Origin: Horticoccus luteus | GTDB taxonomy: Bacteria; Verrucomicrobiota; Verrucomicrobiia; Opitutales; Opitutaceae | Reading direction: 5' to 3' | Assembly (NCBI RefSeq): GCF_019464535.1 | Contig: NZ_CP080507.1 | Coordinates: 2,670,001 to 2,702,000, forward strand | DNA: 32,000 bases | Part shown: positions 11,422 through 19,465 of the stretch, in pieces | Layout: every line of letters begins with the position of its first letter | Position numbering within the stretch: the stretch's first letter is position 1 | Position numbers and translations under genes: made by a program | The notes under the pieces: generated by a model | Seen by the model: the letters and a program-made list of their open reading frames with translations, nothing else | Told to the model about the DNA's origin: nothing | Databases searched by the model: none

Positions 11422-12786
11422 TCACCCCGCATCCAACGGACTCCGCACGCCCAGCCCCGGCTTCTGCATCACATGCGTATAGATCTGCGTCGTCTCCACG
11501 CTCTGGTGGCCGAGTAGTTCCTGCACCGTGCGGATATCGGTGCCCGCCTCCAGCAGATGCGTCGCAAACGAGTGCCGCAGCACATGCGGCGTCACGCGTT
11601 TCGTCATCCCCGCCGCGCCCGCCGCCTTGCGCACCGCATTCTGGAACGTCCCGTCGAGGATATGATGTCGCCGCCGCCGCCCCGTCTCCGGGTCCTGCAT
11701 GAATTCGCGCGACGGCCACAACCACTGCCACTCCCACGTCACCCCCGCCTTGGGATATTTCCGGGCCAGCCCTTCCGGCAACCACACTCCCGGCGCCTCC
11801 GCCGCCCGGTCCTCCGCGAAAATCTCCCGCAGTCGGGCCAGATGAGCCTCCAGTTTTTCCCGCAGCGATTCCGGCAGCACCGTCAGCCGGTCCTTGTCGC
11901 CCTTCCCGCCGTAAACGTTCAATTGTCCGCGCGCCAGATCCAGGTGGTGCACCCGCAGCCGCAGCAGTTCCATCAGCCGCAGTCCACTGCCATACATCAC
12001 CTCCGCCATCAGCCGGTAGCCGCCCGGCAGTTGCTCCAGCACCTGCCGCACCTCCGCCTTGCTCAACACCGTCGGCATCCTCTCCCGGGCCCGCGCGCGC
12101 CGAAAATCCATTTCCCCCAGATCCATCCGCAACGCTTCCTGCATGAAGAACACCAGCGCATTGAGCGCCTGCTTCTGCGTGGACGGCGCTGCGCGCTGCT
12201 CGACGGCCAGCGCCGAGAGAAACGCCGCCACCTCGTCCCCGGAGGCCGTCTCGGGCGAGCGCGGGGCCAGGAACCGCGCGAACCGCGCCGCCCAGGCCCG
12301 ATACGTCTGCTCCGTGCGCCACAAAAATCCCTTGCGCCGGATGGCCGTGATCAACGCGCGCTCCCACTCCGCTCCGCCCTGATCCGCCGCCGCCAGCGGC
12401 GGCACGGCCGGCCTCGCTTCCGGCCCCGACCGCCGCGGGTTATCCGCCGGCCGTTGCGCCCCGACCTCGGGCACCACAAACCCGCGCGCCGCCGGGCGCG
12501 CCTTGCCCGCCGCTCTGGCCGCCTTGAAGAGCCAGGCGAACGCCGCGCGCTCGGCCCGCCGCGCGTTCTCCGTCAAACCAGCACGCGCCAGATGCCAGCG
12601 GATGAAACCCGCCGACAGCGGCCGGCCCGTGGCTTTGCAAGCTCGCAACAATCCTAAAATTGCCCTGACATGCGCCTGCTTCACCTCCGCCGACCATGCG
12701 CTCGCCCCGTTCAACACTTCGCGCCACTCCGGAAATGACACGATTTCGTCCAGATTTTGCTCTGTGCGCTCGCCGGCTAAAGCCAT
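11422..12786 (-). CDS. intI: Integron integrase (IntI family) with an N-terminal extension of about 125 aa
   Basis: The C-terminal two thirds align by eye to IntI1, including the IntI-specific insertion: GVWLPEGLARKYPKAGVTWEWQWLWPS...DPETGRRRRHHILDGTFQNAVRKAAGAAGMTKRVTPHVLRHSFATHLLEAGTDIRTVQELLGHQSVETTQIYTHVMQKPGLGVRSPLD. For comparison, IntI1 reads [24 protein letters not shown]...[21 protein letters not shown]...HTLRHSFATALL...[22 protein letters not shown]...GVRSPLD. The ATG at 12786 is chosen; a TTG at 12885 is the longest alternative. Confidence 0.92.
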   Translation of the reverse strand: MALAGERTEQNLDEIVSFPEWREVLNGASAWSAEVKQAHVRAILGLLRACKATGRPLSAGFIRWHLARAGLTENARRAERAAFAWLFKAARAAGKARPAARGFVVPEVGAQRPADNPRRSGPEARPAVPPLAAADQGGAEWERALITAIRRKGFLWRTEQTYRAWAARFARFLAPRSPETASGDEVAAFLSALAVEQRAAPSTQKQALNALVFFMQEALRMDLGEMDFRRARARERMPTVLSKAEVRQVLEQLPGGYRLMAEVMYGSGLRLMELLRLRVHHLDLARGQLNVYGGKGDKDRLTVLPESLREKLEAHLARLREIFAEDRAAEAPGVWLPEGLARKYPKAGVTWEWQWLWPSREFMQDPETGRRRRHHILDGTFQNAVRKAAGAAGMTKRVTPHVLRHSFATHLLEAGTDIRTVQELLGHQSVETTQIYTHVMQKPGLGVRSPLDAG

Positions 12787-12886
12787 ACTGCCAGTGTGGC
12801 TTTTGCGCGGCCCCGAGCAATCCGATTCCCAAGGTTTCGCCGCCGACCGATCGCCGTCGCATGAAATCAAGCCACGACGCCACAAC

Positions 12887-12984
12887 GGCTAACCGAGTTT
12901 CCGTTCCCCACCTCAACTGCAACCCCCGCTCTCGTTCAGTTCTGGCATTGCCACACTGAGTATGGGCGAATAACACTGTTGGGC
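12887..12984 (+). other. attI region with proposed crossover point G|TTGGGC
   Basis: GTTGGGC at 12978-12984 fits GTTRRRY and is the exact complement of the R'' box of the first cassette (13290-13296). An imperfect direct repeat TGGGCGAA lies at 12963-12970 and 12980-12987. R-box-like heptamers GGCTAAC (12887-12893) and GAATAAC (12968-12974) lie upstream. The extent of attI is a guess. Confidence 0.55.
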
Positions 12985-12994
12985 GAAGAAAGAT

Positions 12995-13261
12995 ATGGAG
13001 CATCGAAACCCCCAGACCGACGCAGAGTGGTTTGAGCACCGCCTAGCACGGTATCGCACGATGTCTGAGGCGCAGATTCTAGCCGAAAGGAAGGGCTGGA
13101 AGATTGGCACGATGGGTTACGAGGCAGCACAGAAGGCGCTATCCGAGCTTCGAGAGAAGAGTGCTCCGAAGTGGTCGATAGACCGGCGGCTTGTCGTGCT
13201 TGGCGTTGTCGTCGCTCTGCTCGGTGTCGCCTCCACATTAGTATGTAGCCTGCGGCCATGA
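12995..13261 (+). CDS. Cassette 1 ORF: 88-aa hypothetical protein with a C-terminal TM anchor
   Basis: The ATG lies 16 nt after the cassette start. The N-terminal part is hydrophilic and helical, followed by LVVLGVVVALLGVASTLVC near the C-terminus. I recognise no homology. Confidence 0.6.
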   Translation: MEHRNPQTDAEWFEHRLARYRTMSEAQILAERKGWKIGTMGYEAAQKALSELREKSAPKWSIDRRLVVLGVVVALLGVASTLVCSLRP

Positions 13262-13289
13262 TTAAGATTCCACTCCGAACCAAAAGGGA

Positions 13290-13388
13290 GCCCAACAAGC
13301 CGCCACAGACAAGGAGGGCCAGCGGACCTTTTGACATGAAATCGAGCATCATTTGGATGGCCCTCCTGTCTGAGCTTTGACGATGGGC
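13290..13388 (+). other. attC of cassette 1 (99 nt)
   Basis: R'' is GCCCAAC (13290-96). A 9-nt spacer is followed by the left arm CAGACA-A-GGAGGGCC (13306-20), which pairs with GGCCCTCCTGTCTG (13359-72) and leaves A13311 bulged. A second 9-nt spacer AGCTTTGAC is followed by G|ATGGGC (13382-88). Confidence 0.8.
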
Positions 13389-18250: not shown

Positions 18251-18542
18251 GTCACCCGTCCGGCCACCACCACCCTCAACCCCTTGCCCGTTCCCACCCA
18301 GGTCTGATCCCTTTGGCCACTGCGCTCTAGCGCCAGCGTGAGCCTCACCGCTCAACGCGCTAACCAGTATGCAGGGCCGCCCTTTTCGAGCACCTTGGAT
18401 TCCTCCCTGCACCAGCGCGGCCATTGACGCCGCCACCACGAGTGCGTATGGAAGCCGGACCGTTCGGGAACGCCGCCCCTCCTCCAGAGCCACCAAAAAG
18501 GTGAACCTTTTTCTATATTATTCTCGACACGCCTTCTCATGG
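18251..18542 (+). ncRNA. Candidate seekRNA/bridge-RNA-encoding right end of the IS110/IS1111-type element
   Basis: This is 292 nt of non-coding IS sequence downstream of the transposase, which is the position reported for IS1111-group guide RNAs. It contains CCAGAGCCA (18484-92), identical to the target flank at 18549-57. A weak AAAAAGG-TGAA-CCTTTTT hairpin lies at 18495-18512. No promoter or RNA ends can be defined by eye. Confidence 0.3.
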
Positions 18543-18634
18543 AAGACGCCAGAGCCAACGTCGTGGGCTGTCACGCTGAGTGCTTGCGCACTCATCGCGC
18601 CATCCCCCGCCGTGGCTCATCTTTGACGTTCGGC
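18543..18634 (+). other. Distal part of the interrupted attC, ending in G|TTCGGC
   Basis: The spacer AAGACGCCA matches 8 of 9 nt of the attC1 spacer. GAGCCA (18552-57) plus a bulged A18558 begins a long imperfect hairpin closing on TGGCTC (18613-18), with inner stem CGCTGAGTGC/GCACTCATCG. The spacer ATCTTTGAC is followed by G18628|TTCGGC. The restored site is 99 nt, the same length as attC1. Confidence 0.7.
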
Positions 18635-18640
18635 AAAAAT

Positions 18641-19039
18641 ATGCGCCCTAGATCTATCGTTGCTGTCCTTATCGGCTTCTTGATTTCCGCCTGCGTGTCA
18701 CACACGCCATCGATGCATCCATCGGACCGCGAAATTTCGGCGGCAATAGTCGGACGGTGGAATACGCCGGCAGCTGGCATTTCCGGTGAGAAGACCTATT
18801 ACGCGGATGGAACGGCGCGTGGATCCCTCGTGGATTTGGAGTCTGGAAGAAGTTGGACTTTTACGAGTCGTTGGCGTGTCGAGAATGCCGTATTGATCAT
18901 CTTCGATATTCAGTCCCAGCCTTCAGGCCTTTTCTCGCCAGGGACGGTCTTTCGCGATCGAGTGCTATCGATCAAGTCGAATGAGATTGAATTTGAGGAT
19001 ATCGGAAGTGGGGAGCGATTTCGCAGGACGCGAAAATAG
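18641..19039 (+). CDS. Cassette 5 ORF: 132-aa lipoprotein
   Basis: It has the signal MRPRSIVAVLIGFLISAC (lipobox ISAC). The ATG lies 12 nt after the cassette start TTCGGC. The ORF-track start at 18539 would read through the IS end and the attC, so it was rejected. Confidence 0.7.
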   Translation: MRPRSIVAVLIGFLISACVSHTPSMHPSDREISAAIVGRWNTPAAGISGEKTYYADGTARGSLVDLESGRSWTFTSRWRVENAVLIIFDIQSQPSGLFSPGTVFRDRVLSIKSNEIEFEDIGSGERFRRTRK

Positions 19040-19094
19040 GCCGAACTCTGAGCGTTCTACTGCGCCGTAGCGCGCAGCGGGACGCGGGTTGAAC
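19040..19094 (+). other. attC of cassette 5 (55 nt, short class)
   Basis: R'' is GCCGAAC (19040-46), complementary to GTTCGGC at 18628-34. The rest differs from attC3 at one position (A19059 versus G14583). It ends in G|TTGAAC (19088-94). Confidence 0.75.
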
Positions 19095-19465
19095 AAGCCC
19101 GTTTCGGAGGCGTCCGCGGTTCCGTCCGCCGCTTATGCGTTTTGTATTGGCCGCCAATCGTTGGCGGACGCAGCGCCGGACGGCGACCGCCTTCGCCGGT
19201 CGCGGGCGCGCGTGCCGGTGGCGTCCGTTTTCGCCCGCCGAGAGGGTGTCCGCCGCCCGTCACCGGGGGCGCGAGCCGTCTTGCGCCCGTCGCGGCCAAG
19301 GCTGCCGCCGGCGGCACGGGGTGCGGGCCGCAATAATATAATAAGTTGGTCCCTGGTTCTTATACTCATCGCGTGCAGAGGGGCGGCGCGCGCGCCCGCC
19401 TCGGCAGCGTGCCCGCGCGCACGAGCGTGAACCGTTCGCAGTGCGGACAACGCAGGTGCCACCGC
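19089..19465 (-). pseudogene. Truncated second copy of the start of the recombinase/transposase unit (3' remnant of the IS91-family transposase)
   Basis: It is colinear with 14613-14989. It retains only the last ~30 codons of the transposase (WHLRCPHCERFTLVRAGTLPRRARAPPLCTR, stop at 19366). Similarity ends near 19462-19466, about 95 nt before the peptidase start codon. Confidence 0.75.

Follow-up and report, generated by a model that had tools for sequence, protein, structure and literature searches.

The chromosome of Horticoccus luteus (Opitutaceae) carries a genuine and complete sedentary chromosomal integron with an intI gene, a divergent attI and four resident cassettes, and this integron has very probably been invaded by two kinds of attC-specific mobile elements, a 2.6-kb cassette-mimicking element and an IS1111-type insertion sequence (IS). 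An earlier note on this DNA had correctly called a complete chromosomal integron but counted five consecutive ordinary cassettes; only four are resident, and its unit 4 (14612-18628) is a multicopy mobile element, which combines genes for a tyrosine recombinase and an IS91-family transposase with a hairpin of its own and is joined to the IS. As an integron the locus is ordinary. The element, which mimics cassettes and targets attCs, appears to be undescribed, though earlier accounts in ISfinder, TnPedia or subscription journals may have been missed. Coordinates refer to the window, i.e., the whole 32-kb stretch of DNA that was analysed (strand in parentheses):

11422-12786 (-): intI, integron integrase, 454 aa from the ATG at 12786 (the mechanical ORF extends to a TTG at 12885)
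12950-12984 (+): attI core GCCACACTGAGTATGGGCGAATAACACTG|TTGGGC, crossover between G12978 and T12979
12979-13382 (+): cassette 1, ORF 12995-13261, 88 aa
13290-13388 (+): attC1, 99 nt, R'' GCCCAAC and R' GATGGGC
13383-14175 (+): cassette 2, ORF 13400-14110, 236 aa, TPR lipoprotein with lipobox LAGC
14116-14181 (+): attC2, 66 nt
14176-14570 (+): cassette 3, first part, ORF 14198-14560, 120 aa, signal peptide
14564-14570 (+): R'' GGCTAAC of cassette 3's own attC, reverse complement of G+TTAGCC
17138 (+): single base C of the cassette 3 attC, stranded between element copy A and the IS
18544-18634 (+): remainder of the cassette 3 attC, AGACGCC AGAGCCAACG...GTGGCTCATCTTTGAC plus R' GTTCGGC, crossover G18628|T18629
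18629-19046 (+): cassette 4 (unit 5 of the earlier note), ORF 18641-19039, 132 aa, lipoprotein with lipobox ISAC
19040-19046 (+): R'' GCCGAAC of cassette 4, reverse complement of G+TTCGGC; the rest of this attC is lost

The intI product, 100% identical to a 454-aa protein annotated as 'integron integrase [Horticoccus luteus]', scores 382.8 bits on TIGR02249 (cutoff 265) over model positions 7-314 of 315, and its IntI signature K343, Y344, W351, Q354, W355 and P358 is invariant among 40 homologs. Its AF2 model finds VchIntIA as top PDB match (2A3V; E 8e-24, 40% identity); residues ~11-100 form an extra N-terminal four-helix domain, which a disordered linker connects to the canonical IntI core. 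At two related loci, L018 and L019, whose IntI is 77% identical, the 31-nt attI block is 97% identical and this likeness stops exactly past GTT, where a different first cassette takes over, and the attI of L040 reads ...CGAATAACACTG|TTCGGC. Conservation up to G|TT at all three loci supports the integron reading.

The regularity for which the array was first noticed is real, as all ten 7-nt boxes are found exactly where they had been claimed when read from the sequence:

Pair 1: GTTGGGC 12978-84 / GCCCAAC 13290-96
Pair 2: GATGGGC 13382-88 / GCCCATC 14116-22
Pair 3: GTTAGCC 14175-81 / GGCTAAC 14564-70
Pair 4: GTTGAAC 14612-18 / GTTCAAC 17131-37
Pair 5: GTTCGGC 18628-34 / GCCGAAC 19040-46

In five out of five units the R''-type box is the exact reverse complement of the unit's own opening box and not of the box next in the array, from which it differs by 1, 4, 3, 4 and 4 bases (units 1-5). 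The short distances of ORF starts from unit boundaries (claimed as 12-22 nt) and the higher AT content of the small units hold as well: ATGs at 12995, 13400, 14198 and 18641 lie 16, 17, 22 and 12 nt past the G|TT boundary, and the small units have 53-56% GC and a GC skew of ~0 compared to 62-73% and -0.2 to -0.3 in the flanks. As to the argument that such a series is hard to obtain by chance, a naive search for chained offset-complementary 7-mers (boxes G[TA]TNNNN, sites of 45-150 nt, units of <=5 kb) is not discriminating, since 200 order-1 Markov simulations of the IS-free window also give long chains (7-18, compared to 19 on either strand of the real window), and ranking sites by hairpin energy is confounded by high GC. 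The significance of the array instead derives from independent evidence, i.e., an attC covariance model from other genomes, the conserved attI and a compensatory cassette homolog.

This covariance model (R1) was built from 10 attCs of other, related genomes with the window excluded, and it also detects arrays upstream of intI in L002, L003, L018 and L040. Over the 32-kb window it gives exactly three strong matches, all on the + strand, namely attC1 (13290-13388; 52.3 bits, E 7e-12), attC2 (14116-14181; 56.7 bits, E 5e-13) and 18541-18634 (33.0 bits, E 9e-7, despite an absent 5' part). It thus recovers three sites of the proposed array but does not recognise the 55-nt sites at 14564-14618 and 19040-19094, which score ~7 bits on the - strand, though R1 covers the local attC family only and a general IntegronFinder model might still call them attC. 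The circle-form bottom strand of attC1 folds at -21.9 kcal/mol with its R boxes paired. A homolog of cassette 2 (79%) resides with identical boundaries in another array, L166, where it carries the compensatory pair TTGGGC/GCCCAAC in place of ATGGGC/GCCCATC. The cargo of the four resident, promoterless cassettes consists of small secreted proteins or lipoproteins without assigned function, as had been anticipated; the cassette 2 ORF has a Pfam TPR_11 match, and family searches with the 88-aa product of cassette 1 and the 132-aa product of cassette 4 returned no match. The real attC of cassette 3 is split into its R'' (14564-70), base 17138 and 18544-18634; its rejoined pieces match the family 5' motif CARNCGCYASAGCCAAC at every position, and in silico deletion of the IS makes it colinear with intact attCs of L018 and L098. 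The hairpin after 17131, formerly assigned to unit 4, is the remainder of this attC.

The invading elements are arranged as follows:

14571-17137 (-): cassette-mimicking element, copy A, ends ambiguous within the common AAC
14571-14611: spacer TCTGA and 14-bp hairpin of copy A
14612-18: box GTTGAAC of copy A
16060 down to ~14890 (-): IS91-family tnpA of copy A (NF033538 IS91, 360 bits)
16064-17029 (-): tyrosine recombinase gene of copy A (TIGR02249, merely 158 bits; cutoff 265)
17131-37: box GTTCAAC of copy A
17139-18543 (+): IS1111-type IS, 1405 bp, tnp 17177-18250, 357 aa
19047-19465 (-): cassette-mimicking element, truncated copy B, 90-92% identity to 14571-14990

On its own strand, the 2.6-kb element starts with (G)TTGAAC and ends with GTTCAAC, a 2-nt spacer, the 14-bp hairpin, a 5-nt spacer and G, so the supposed fourth pair of cassette boxes, GTTGAAC/GTTCAAC, consists of the boxes at the element's two ends as seen from the opposite strand. 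Its boundaries are defined by comparison with 14 related loci, where homology reaches from ~17137 to ~14562-14568 with the 55-nt hairpin included and stops at the R'' AAC on one side and at GTTCAAC on the other; tandem head-to-tail copies abut as ...CTCAGA GTTGAAC.... Within the window, copy A lies in the attC of cassette 3 and truncated copy B in that of cassette 4, and the identity of the two starts at the AAC of the cassette 3 R'' box (repeat D1, 14568-14867 versus 19044-19343, 92%). In copy B the hairpin and the GTTGAAC box (19088-94) remain, together with ~370 nt in which the final 34 codons of tnpA are preserved (tblastn match to tnpA residues 326-359); the promoter region that copy B adjoins belongs to an M49-like peptidase gene. 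The tnpA of copy A is broken by a ~92-nt insertion and a frameshift near 15040-15131, and copy A may be inactive because of this frameshift. Several near-identical copies of the element recombinase are found in the H. luteus genome, and homologs with 85-88% identity in many metagenomes.

The 55-nt hairpin accompanies the element at every related locus, and the sites at 14564-14618 and 19040-19094 belong to the element rather than being the attCs of the upstream 120-aa and 132-aa ORFs, as their reading as terminal hairpins of units 3 and 5 had implied. The hairpin covaries strongly: Across 33 variants it is 98.2% paired with 9 out of 14 pairs compensatory, 0 of 500 shuffles attain the observed value and slid controls give 32-56%. 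Strand preference is opposite to that of true attCs: The resident attCs fold better as bottom strand (1.40 G.T pairs there versus 0.20 on top), but the element site folds better as array-top strand (1.48 versus 0.03).

The element is placed inverted between AA|C of a resident attC R'' box and the rest of that attC, and neighbouring cassette ORFs always lie on the opposite strand; at L040, the same layout is found beside an intI. In metagenomes, an attC 5' motif directly follows GTTCAAC in at least 65 of 105 distinct contexts sampled with a pattern that demanded GTTGAAC at the junction (variants of this box lie outside the sample), compared to 105 of 10,658 control AAC sites. Since ~20-35% of the element's contexts contain no recognisable attC, its attC specificity is strong but not absolute. 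A search for the empty site, i.e., the same cassette with an uninterrupted attC, did not find one.

The IS encodes a transposase with 216.8 bits on NF033542 IS110, and its subterminal inverted repeats ATGAGAAGGCG (repeat I22; 17146-56 and 18530-40), their extensions of 7 nt on the left and 3 nt on the right and a 293-nt non-coding region 3' of tnp fit the IS1111 rule; we used the sTIR rule from PMC11187229 to set the left junction as GTTCAAC C|AGTAGGG. Insertion 1 nt 3' of the R'' box (NNNNAAC C|AG) is seen in four independent insertions, with the same position in L070, L077 and L149, and is the standard insertion position of its family. Comparison of seekRNA and target gave matches of 6 nt only.

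For the cassette-mimicking element we tentatively suggest a joint mechanism. Its transposase could release the strand antisense to the element genes in the manner of IS91, which makes single-stranded circles (PMC5714925), and the resulting circle would join at GGTTCAAC-TCTGAG. The element's attC-like site would fold in that strand, and strand exchange by its own recombinase would occur at 5'-AAC-3', the partner being a resident attC's top strand, which IntI avoids. The IS probably inserted after the element, 1 nt past the R'' box. The element's end boxes are mutual complements, so they pair once the ends are joined and both hybrid sites keep the cassette rule, which made the array look like five regular units. 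Which enzyme moves the element is something we infer, as an AA|C joint would indicate the tyrosine recombinase and an AAC| joint the HUH enzyme, and the two read alike in sequence.

A purely IS91-type rolling circle, with the Y2 transposase nicking both the target and the two element ends after ...AAC|, the hairpin serving, like those of IS91 and Helitrons, as terminator or origin, and the recombinase resolving multimers or being accessory, is rather unlikely. IS91 is flanked by GAAC/CAAG (equivalently GTTC/CTTG), and CTTG and GTTC are indeed present at the element end GGCTTGGTTCAAC, but the tetranucleotides at insertion points are TAAC, GAAC or CAAC on one side with YTG on the other and no fixed GTTC/CTTG. 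Moreover, the 7-13 nt complementarity of the ends matches the need of an attC-like R''/R' stem and covaries in the related ISAzo26 (GTTGGAC/GTCCAAC), and we know of no such complementarity at IS91 termini. The recombinase gene is also conserved and always present. The IS91-family transposase is nevertheless intact in relatives, head-to-tail tandem copies exist, the better-folding strand is the one that IS91 would displace, scar-like GAAC...GAAC deletions in L040 and L041 would fit, and a hairpin near the Helitron 3' end works as terminator (PMC4778049).

It is improbable that the host's IntI inserted the element backwards, as a genuine gene cassette, via rare top-strand recombination of resident attCs, even though the element has formal cassette anatomy, lies beside intI in two genomes and crosses over inside the AAC cleaved by IntI, whose top-strand use inverts the cassette and is measurable at some attCs (PMC5027507). 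Such use is 10^3-10^4 times rarer and inverted cassettes 'have never been observed' (PMC5027507), yet the element is inverted in every attC context found. It is also always accompanied by a recombinase of its own, not all copies lie in attC-like DNA, and its relative ISAzo26, of the same design, is plasmid-borne beside other ISs, where none of the five genes annotated in the 6-kb stretch examined shows integron features. The original reading as five ordinary cassettes, with the 55-nt sites as attCs of the 120-aa and 132-aa ORFs and the recombinase/IS91 pair as cargo using a 99-nt attC (17131...18634), in which unit 4 circles would be joined at G|TTGAAC...attC(99 nt)-G, is hardly credible, because, though all five box pairs keep the rule and GTTCAAC and the resident remainder combine to a canonical attC (circle form, -33.5 kcal/mol) that IntI could probably use, a cassette body should stay with its own attC, but what this one keeps at each locus is the hairpin at its opposite end, and it is followed by more than 60 different attCs, and at least seven unrelated cassette ORFs would need to share one near-identical 55-nt attC of inverted polarity that the family model misses.

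An integron invaded by attC-specific elements, as we read the locus, can be compared with several known systems. As in the sedentary chromosomal integrons of Vibrio cholerae (the superintegron with VchIntIA) and Xanthomonas, its IntI includes the IntI-specific segment, its attI is divergent with the crossover at G|TT, and its promoterless cassettes are co-oriented and without assigned function; their attCs form one family with bottom-strand bias and a conserved single-base bulge. It differs in its verrucomicrobial host (Opitutaceae; ~65% GC), in the extra conserved N-terminal four-helix domain of ~100 aa in its IntI (454 versus ~320 aa) and in its short, heavily parasitised array of four cassettes. 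The IS resembles the IS1111-attC group (ISPa21, ISKpn4, ISPst6), reportedly described by Tetu and Holmes in 2008 and by Post and Hall in 2009, in its 1405-bp length with DEDD transposase, 11-bp subterminal inverted repeats with 7-nt/3-nt extensions, long non-coding region past tnp and fixed point at one attC end in four cases. No plasmid-borne IS110-family transposase, Klebsiella ones included, exceeds 35% identity to that of the IS, which is a putative member of the group. The seekRNA work is relevant to this group (PMC11187229).

The closest design to the cassette-mimicking element is that of ISAzo26 (an ISfinder subgroup; Aromatoleum aromaticum EbN1 plasmid 2), which shares an IS91-family tnpA with an upstream tyrosine-recombinase gene at a 4-10 nt gap, a comparable start (GTTGGAC TAAACCGCTGGCGCGG versus GTTGAAC CAAGCCGCTGCGCGGCG in H. 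luteus), and a complementary box (GTCCAAC) and hairpin past tnpA of which the antisense strand folds better. The transposases are only ~39% identical, however, and the ISAzo26 copy lies among other ISs in a 6-kb stretch that shows no integron features. We found no description of attC targeting or of a cassette-like reading for this subgroup in the literature, and a Shewanella study merely noted the IS91-like ISShvi3 as 'adjacent to an attC site' (PMC9229058). Group IIC-attC introns are likewise selfish, attC-specialised, opposite in orientation to cassette genes and exploit a folded single strand, but they are retroelements (ribozyme and reverse transcriptase) rather than DNA recombinases, with another insertion point and mechanism. 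Finally, as in single-stranded hairpin integration by IntI at the attC bottom strand or by XerCD at the folded CTX-phage attP, the element has an imperfect, conserved hairpin in which G.T pairs are strand-specific; complementary 7-nt boxes lie on both sides of it, and the crossover falls within 5'-AAC-3'. Unlike in those systems, its proposed partner is the attC top strand at the R'' end, which IntI discriminates against, and its recombinase has no IntI-specific insertion and is accompanied by an HUH rolling-circle transposase.

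The chromosomal integron proposed in the earlier note is real, with an integrase of the IntI clade, a divergent attI with a G|TT junction and cassettes that carry attC sites. The integrase covers the whole TIGR02249 model at 382.8 bits (cutoff 265), contains the IntI-specific additional segment and displays the IntI signature ...KY..G..W..QW..P..., of which K343, Y344, W351, Q354, W355 and P358 are invariant across 40 homologs. The PDB structure nearest to its AlphaFold model is VchIntIA (2A3V; E 8e-24, 40% identity), followed by XerA (6e-14), while a score of 290 against PRK15417, below the cutoff of 435, shows that it is not a class 1 integrase. 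The protein matches the 454-aa "integron integrase [Horticoccus luteus]" at 100% identity, and the true start of intI is the ATG at 12786. We note that a second integron integrase (protein P0002, 96% identical) is encoded on the same 4.32-Mb chromosome, so that the H. luteus genome harbors two integron platforms. Residues 1-145 of the integrase form an N-terminal extension that is conserved in the clade (lengths of 430-470 aa occur in more than 100 homologs) and comprises a predicted four-helix bundle at ca. 11-100 (pLDDT 89-96; W21, L47, C50 and W85 invariant in 40 homologs) and a disordered linker at 109-129 ahead of the canonical IntI core. This extension has no match in Pfam or in a PDB sequence search, and its predicted fold resembles a second SAM-like core-binding domain.

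The attI adjoins intI, and a block of it is 97% identical in the related loci L018/L019 although IntI there is only 77% identical. This similarity ends exactly after the GTT, where L018/L019 continue into a different first cassette (start TTCGGC, attC R'' GCCGAAC), and in related locus L040 attI is conserved likewise up to the GTT before a different first cassette. A scan of the attI region for sigma-70 promoters found none. Scanning genome contigs with an off-frame translation of intI, which is itself conserved, yielded the Opitutales intI loci L001-L004; a 453-aa ORF in L022 considered as a further IntI was rejected because it is a membrane protein. Between the PNPase gene (8591-11059) and intI, whose 3' end faces this spacer, there is a perfect 35-bp tandem duplication (11251-11320, two copies of CATCCCTGTGGGCCGGGTGCCCTCACCCGGCATCC). 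The features of the array are listed here, with R1 denoting a covariance model built from ten attCs, all of them from related loci.

11422-12786, minus strand: intI, IntI-clade tyrosine recombinase, 454 aa
12950-12980: attI block of 31 nt, GCCACACTGAGTATGGGCGAATAACACTGTT, 97% identical in L018/L019
13290-13388, plus strand: attC1, R1 52.3 bits
14116-14181, plus strand: attC2, R1 56.7 bits
14564-70 (GGCTAA|C), base 17138 and 18544-18634: attC of cassette 3, split
14571-17137, minus strand: copy A of the cassette-mimicking element
17139-18543, plus strand: IS1111-type IS with IS110-family DEDD transposase, 216.8 bits
17146-56 and 18530-40: sTIRs of this IS, ATGAGAAGGCG, 11 bp, with 7-nt left and 3-nt right extensions
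18541-18634, plus strand: remainder of the cassette 3 attC, R1 33.0 bits
19040-46: R'', all that is left of the cassette 4 attC, followed by a truncated element copy (copy B) at 19047-~19465

When both strands of the window were searched with filters off, R1 gave exactly three strong matches, all on the plus strand (next best 12.6 bits), and thereby bore out the expectation that an attC model would recognize sites in this array (13290-13388, 14116-14181 and 18541-18634). The same model detects attC arrays upstream of intI in four related loci (L002, L003, L018 and L040). The resident attCs are imperfect R''-L''...L'-R' palindromes with a conserved bulged A at column 23, and their bottom strand is favored by 1.9-3.8 kcal/mol, with 1.40 G.T pairs on the bottom vs 0.20 on the top strand and a top-strand GC skew of -0.12. 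Because R' is part of the following unit, z-scores were weak when the sites were folded in their array context, and folding them in the circle form remedied this. An Rfam search returned neither attC nor bridge RNA matches nor any others, and a tRNA search returned none.

All four resident cassettes have an R'' that is reverse-complementary to their own first 6 nt preceded by G, a rule that is also obeyed in L018, L020, L023 and L040. The protein of cassette 2 has a 79%-identical homolog in L166, where the cassette sits in another array, keeps its start and R'' boundaries and has the pair TTGGGC/GCCCAAC in place of the ATGGGC/GCCCATC of the window, a compensatory change; boundary polymorphism as anticipated for a true cassette is thus documented by this comparison, which covers one of the four cassettes. 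The cargo consists of an 88-aa protein, a 236-aa TPR lipoprotein, a 120-aa secreted protein and a 132-aa lipoprotein, and the earlier description of it as unknown agrees with our finding that none of the four matches a functional family and that PADLOC reports no defense system.

The descriptive claims made from the sequence alone are accurate: all ten 7-mers lie at the coordinates first reported, each R''-type box is exactly reverse-complementary to the opening of its own unit (G and the six bases at the start) and does not complement the box after it, ORFs start 12-22 nt past the unit boundaries, and the small units are more AT-rich than their surroundings (53-56% vs 62-73% GC, with a GC skew of about 0 vs -0.2 to -0.3). 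The argument that five such matches in a row are hard to get by chance cannot be sustained from the boxes alone, since a permissive chain search gives chains of 19 on both real strands and chains of 7-18 in 200 order-1 Markov simulations based on the window minus the IS; compared with these simulations, the offset-complementary chain statistic does not reach significance. Hairpin energy did not discriminate between candidate sites either, and a ranking by it is confounded by the high GC content. Because neither box pattern nor hairpin energies discriminate, the case for the integron rests on the independent evidence of integrase, attI, R1 and the cassette 2 homolog, and each of the three ways in which the earlier note said that its reading could fail is decided in favor of an integron. 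We further observed that the core genome (1-12500 and 19500-32000) has, on this strand, a uniform, strongly negative GC skew of about -0.15 to -0.33 and that the skew of 13000-17000, which spans cassettes and the IS91-type element, is near zero or slightly positive; this contrast is a sharp compositional mark of foreign DNA that is independent of GC content.

The count of five ordinary cassettes is wrong, however, because what had been read as the fourth unit (14612-18628) is a mobile element of 2.6 kb joined to an IS. The hairpin that accompanies the body of the element is the one at its opposite end, and over 60 different attCs follow the body downstream, which is incompatible with an ordinary cassette, and the 55-nt sites 14564-14618 and 19040-19094 are not the attCs of the ORFs upstream of them. 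Identity between the two window copies starts at the AAC of R'' (14568-14867 vs 19044-19343, 92%), and the polarity of both sites is inverted, with R1 scoring ca. 7 bits on the minus strand. Similarly, DNA homology across 14 related loci spans ~17137 (the GTTCAAC box) to ~14562-14568, takes in the 55-nt hairpin and stops at the AAC of R''. Tandem copies of the element join as ...CTCAGA-GTTGAAC-CAAGCC..., and on its own sense strand it starts with (G)TTGAAC and ends with GTTCAAC-CC-hairpin-TCAGA-G, much like a cassette.

The element encodes a tyrosine recombinase and a transposase, both on the minus strand. On the IntI model the recombinase reaches no more than 158 bits; it shares 32% identity with IntI and comes without the IntI-specific segment, and near-identical copies of it occur several times in H. 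luteus alongside hundreds of 75-89% homologs in metagenome contigs. The transposase matches NF033538 (IS91) at 360.4 bits as well as PF04986 and PF14319 and is of the Y2 HUH type with an N-terminal zinc-binding domain. Its gene, tnpA, is intact in relatives (359-367 aa) and frameshifted in copy A, where an insertion of ca. 92 nt at 15040-15131 relative to 359-aa homologs shifts the frame before the C-terminal zinc finger, so that the tail of the mechanically predicted 467-aa ORF is spurious; copy A is probably non-autonomous. A truncated recombinase/IS91 element also forms the distal end of the array in both the window (~19462-19466) and L040 (~7090), with breakpoints at most ca. 22 nt apart within the tnpA 3' end (CPHC zinc-finger codons), which may mark a hot spot, for instance a nick site, or be coincidental. 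The divergent 3' region confounded an HSP-based search for further truncated copies.

What lies beyond the two ends reveals the target of the element. Past the GTTCAAC end, the compared element loci continue into the rest of a canonical resident attC of the form C-ARNCGCY-ASAGCCAAC...GTGGCTSA-N8-G|TTNNNN and then the ATG of the next cassette, while the hairpin end abuts xxxxAA|C immediately past the stop of an oppositely oriented cassette ORF. A metagenome scan with the first 24 nt of the element retrieved more than 120 stretches, which together with the element loci L020-L043 provide 105 distinct upstream contexts. An attC regex and an exact-arm rule both proved too strict, and we therefore used the covariance model and counted a 17-nt motif with at most 4 mismatches, which is present in 65 of the 105 contexts as compared to 105 of 10,658 control AAC sites; 3 of the contexts are tandem copies. 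The element in L040 occupies the same inverted position, and its array lies beside the L040 intI. An empty site would appear as an uninterrupted cassette 3 attC, GGCTAAC-CAGACGCC...GTTCGGC, and our search for it returned tandem artefacts only. About one-fifth of the insertion contexts show no recognizable attC after the GTTCAAC (L153, L112, L092, L151, L085, L120, L143, L095, L091, L067, L123 and L132) and may reflect the use of secondary sites or rearranged copies. At the hairpin end, we also noticed scar-like junctions (L040, 7444-7510; L041, 4837-4900) such as ...CCTCCGA GTTGAAC CCTCCGA GTTAGGC or GCCTAAC TCGGAGG GTTCAAC TCGGAGGGTTG... that look like deletions between two ...GAAC sites and may have been left by excision or by aberrant termination.

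The structure of the hairpin is conserved. Its 33 distinct variants share one 14-bp stem that is 98.2% paired, with compensatory changes in 9 of the 14 pairs; none of 500 shuffles reach the observed values, and slid controls reach 32-56%. A T.G wobble (alignment columns 13-38) is kept on the array-top strand in 32 of the 33 variants. By criteria for the recombinogenic strand from PMC5027507 (stability, G.T pairs, skew), the resident attCs are as expected and the element site is reversed: its array-top strand is favored by 2.0 kcal/mol, with 1.48 G.T pairs vs 0.03 and a GC skew of +0.06. Judging from these sequence patterns, the hairpin is a functional, strand-specific structure. The sequence that IntI cleaves, 5'-AAC-3', belongs to R' in the bottom strand and to R'' in the top strand (Nivina et al., PMC5027507). 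Given the reversed polarity, it is with the top strand of a resident attC, at this AAC of R'', that the bottom-like strand of the element has become joined. A cassette recombined through the top strand would end up inverted; such recombination is less frequent by a factor of 10^3-10^4, and cassettes in inverted orientation "have never been observed" (PMC5027507). Unlike cassettes, the element is systematically inverted in the array, and this regular occurrence of an inversion that IntI avoids argues for another enzyme.

Boundaries, target and polarity of the element follow directly from these data, and for its enzymology we tentatively prefer, at somewhat less than even confidence, a model in three steps. 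The Y2 transposase would displace the antisense strand as a circle, just as IS91 displaces a strand as a single-stranded circle (PMC5714925). The GTTCAAC and GTTGAAC boxes would then fold together with the hairpin into an attC-like site, and the element's own recombinase would carry out strand exchange between this site and a resident attC at its R'' end. This model predicts a circle junction ...GGCTTGGTTCAAC|TCTGAGCG... that would be enriched as the strand antisense to the recombinase and tnpA genes. Pure rolling-circle transposition with a nick at ...AAC| is a clearly less likely competitor. The IS91 family inserts beside a GAAC/CAAG (GTTC/CTTG) tetranucleotide without target duplication, and the element flanks, NAAC and YTG, resemble this rule only in part, with no duplication beyond the shared AAC. 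That the host IntI moves the element by acting on the attC top strand is quite improbable.

Because the two end boxes complement each other, both hybrid sites that the element creates obey the cassette rule, which explains the five-in-a-row pattern noticed at first and suggests that IntI is still able to process an array with the element in it. We can picture, with similar reserve, a widespread family of integron parasites (tyrosine recombinase, IS91-type HUH transposase and an attC-like hairpin of inverted polarity) that are copied via single-stranded circles, enter the attC top strand at the AAC of R'', a reaction suppressed by integron integrases and unrecorded for cassettes, and may be co-mobilized with neighboring cassettes by IntI. 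If so, self-complementary end boxes would keep the hybrid sites legal for IntI and array shuffling could continue.

The cassette 3 attC was also hit by the IS1111-type IS. Members of the IS1111 family have sTIRs of 11-13 bp, extensions of 7 nt on the left and 3 nt on the right and a non-coding region downstream of tnp, which is 293 nt long here. Removing the IS in silico restores a 99-nt attC that is colinear with intact attCs of L018 and L098, and the insertion point NNNNAAC C|AGTAGG recurs with the same repeats in L070, L077 and L149. By these features, the IS appears to work like the IS1111-attC group (clade of ISPa21, ISKpn4 and ISPst6), though no plasmid-borne IS110-family relative shares more than 35% identity with its transposase. 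A search for a putative seekRNA gave matches between the non-coding region and the target of no more than 6 nt (AACCAG, TGAACC). Related arrays carry a third attC-associated element, an IS110-family IS with a 366-aa transposase, whose end GAT(C/A)TAGCTGCGT..AAGCGG abuts the R' GTT of at least 5 different attCs (L018 1-50; L020 ~980-1030; L025; L070; L109; L161) and whose repeats probably break assemblies at the intI-proximal cassettes.

Integron arrays of Opitutaceae therefore carry at least three types of attC-specific elements, which bears on array stability. The element described here unites a HUH rolling-circle transposase with a hairpin-recognizing tyrosine recombinase, suggesting a division of labor in which one enzyme makes single strands and the other integrates them, and its natural, recurrent recombination at the R'' end of the attC top strand offers a handle on strand selectivity. 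It is also an annotation trap: because hybrid sites satisfy the cassette rule, such elements may stand, mislabeled as cassettes and attCs, in the cassette counts, attC catalogues and cargo lists compiled for soil and freshwater metagenomes.

The integron itself is an ordinary further case of a known class, with an integrase already named as such by NCBI, and the interesting part is an element that targets the attC top strand. In the literature that we searched, we found no earlier account of this element and no description of attC targeting by the ISAzo26-type subgroup; the one related remark concerns ISShvi3, an IS91-like element in a Shewanella integron, described as "adjacent to an attC site" (PMC9229058). 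The closest annotated relative of our element is ISAzo26 from an Aromatoleum plasmid, which has the same gene pair, starts with GTTGGAC TAAACCGCTGGCGCGG and carries GTCCAAC and a long hairpin downstream of tnpA. As in our element, its antisense strand folds better, and comparison of GTTGGAC/GTCCAAC with GTTGAAC/GTTCAAC shows that the pair of end boxes covaries between these distant relatives.
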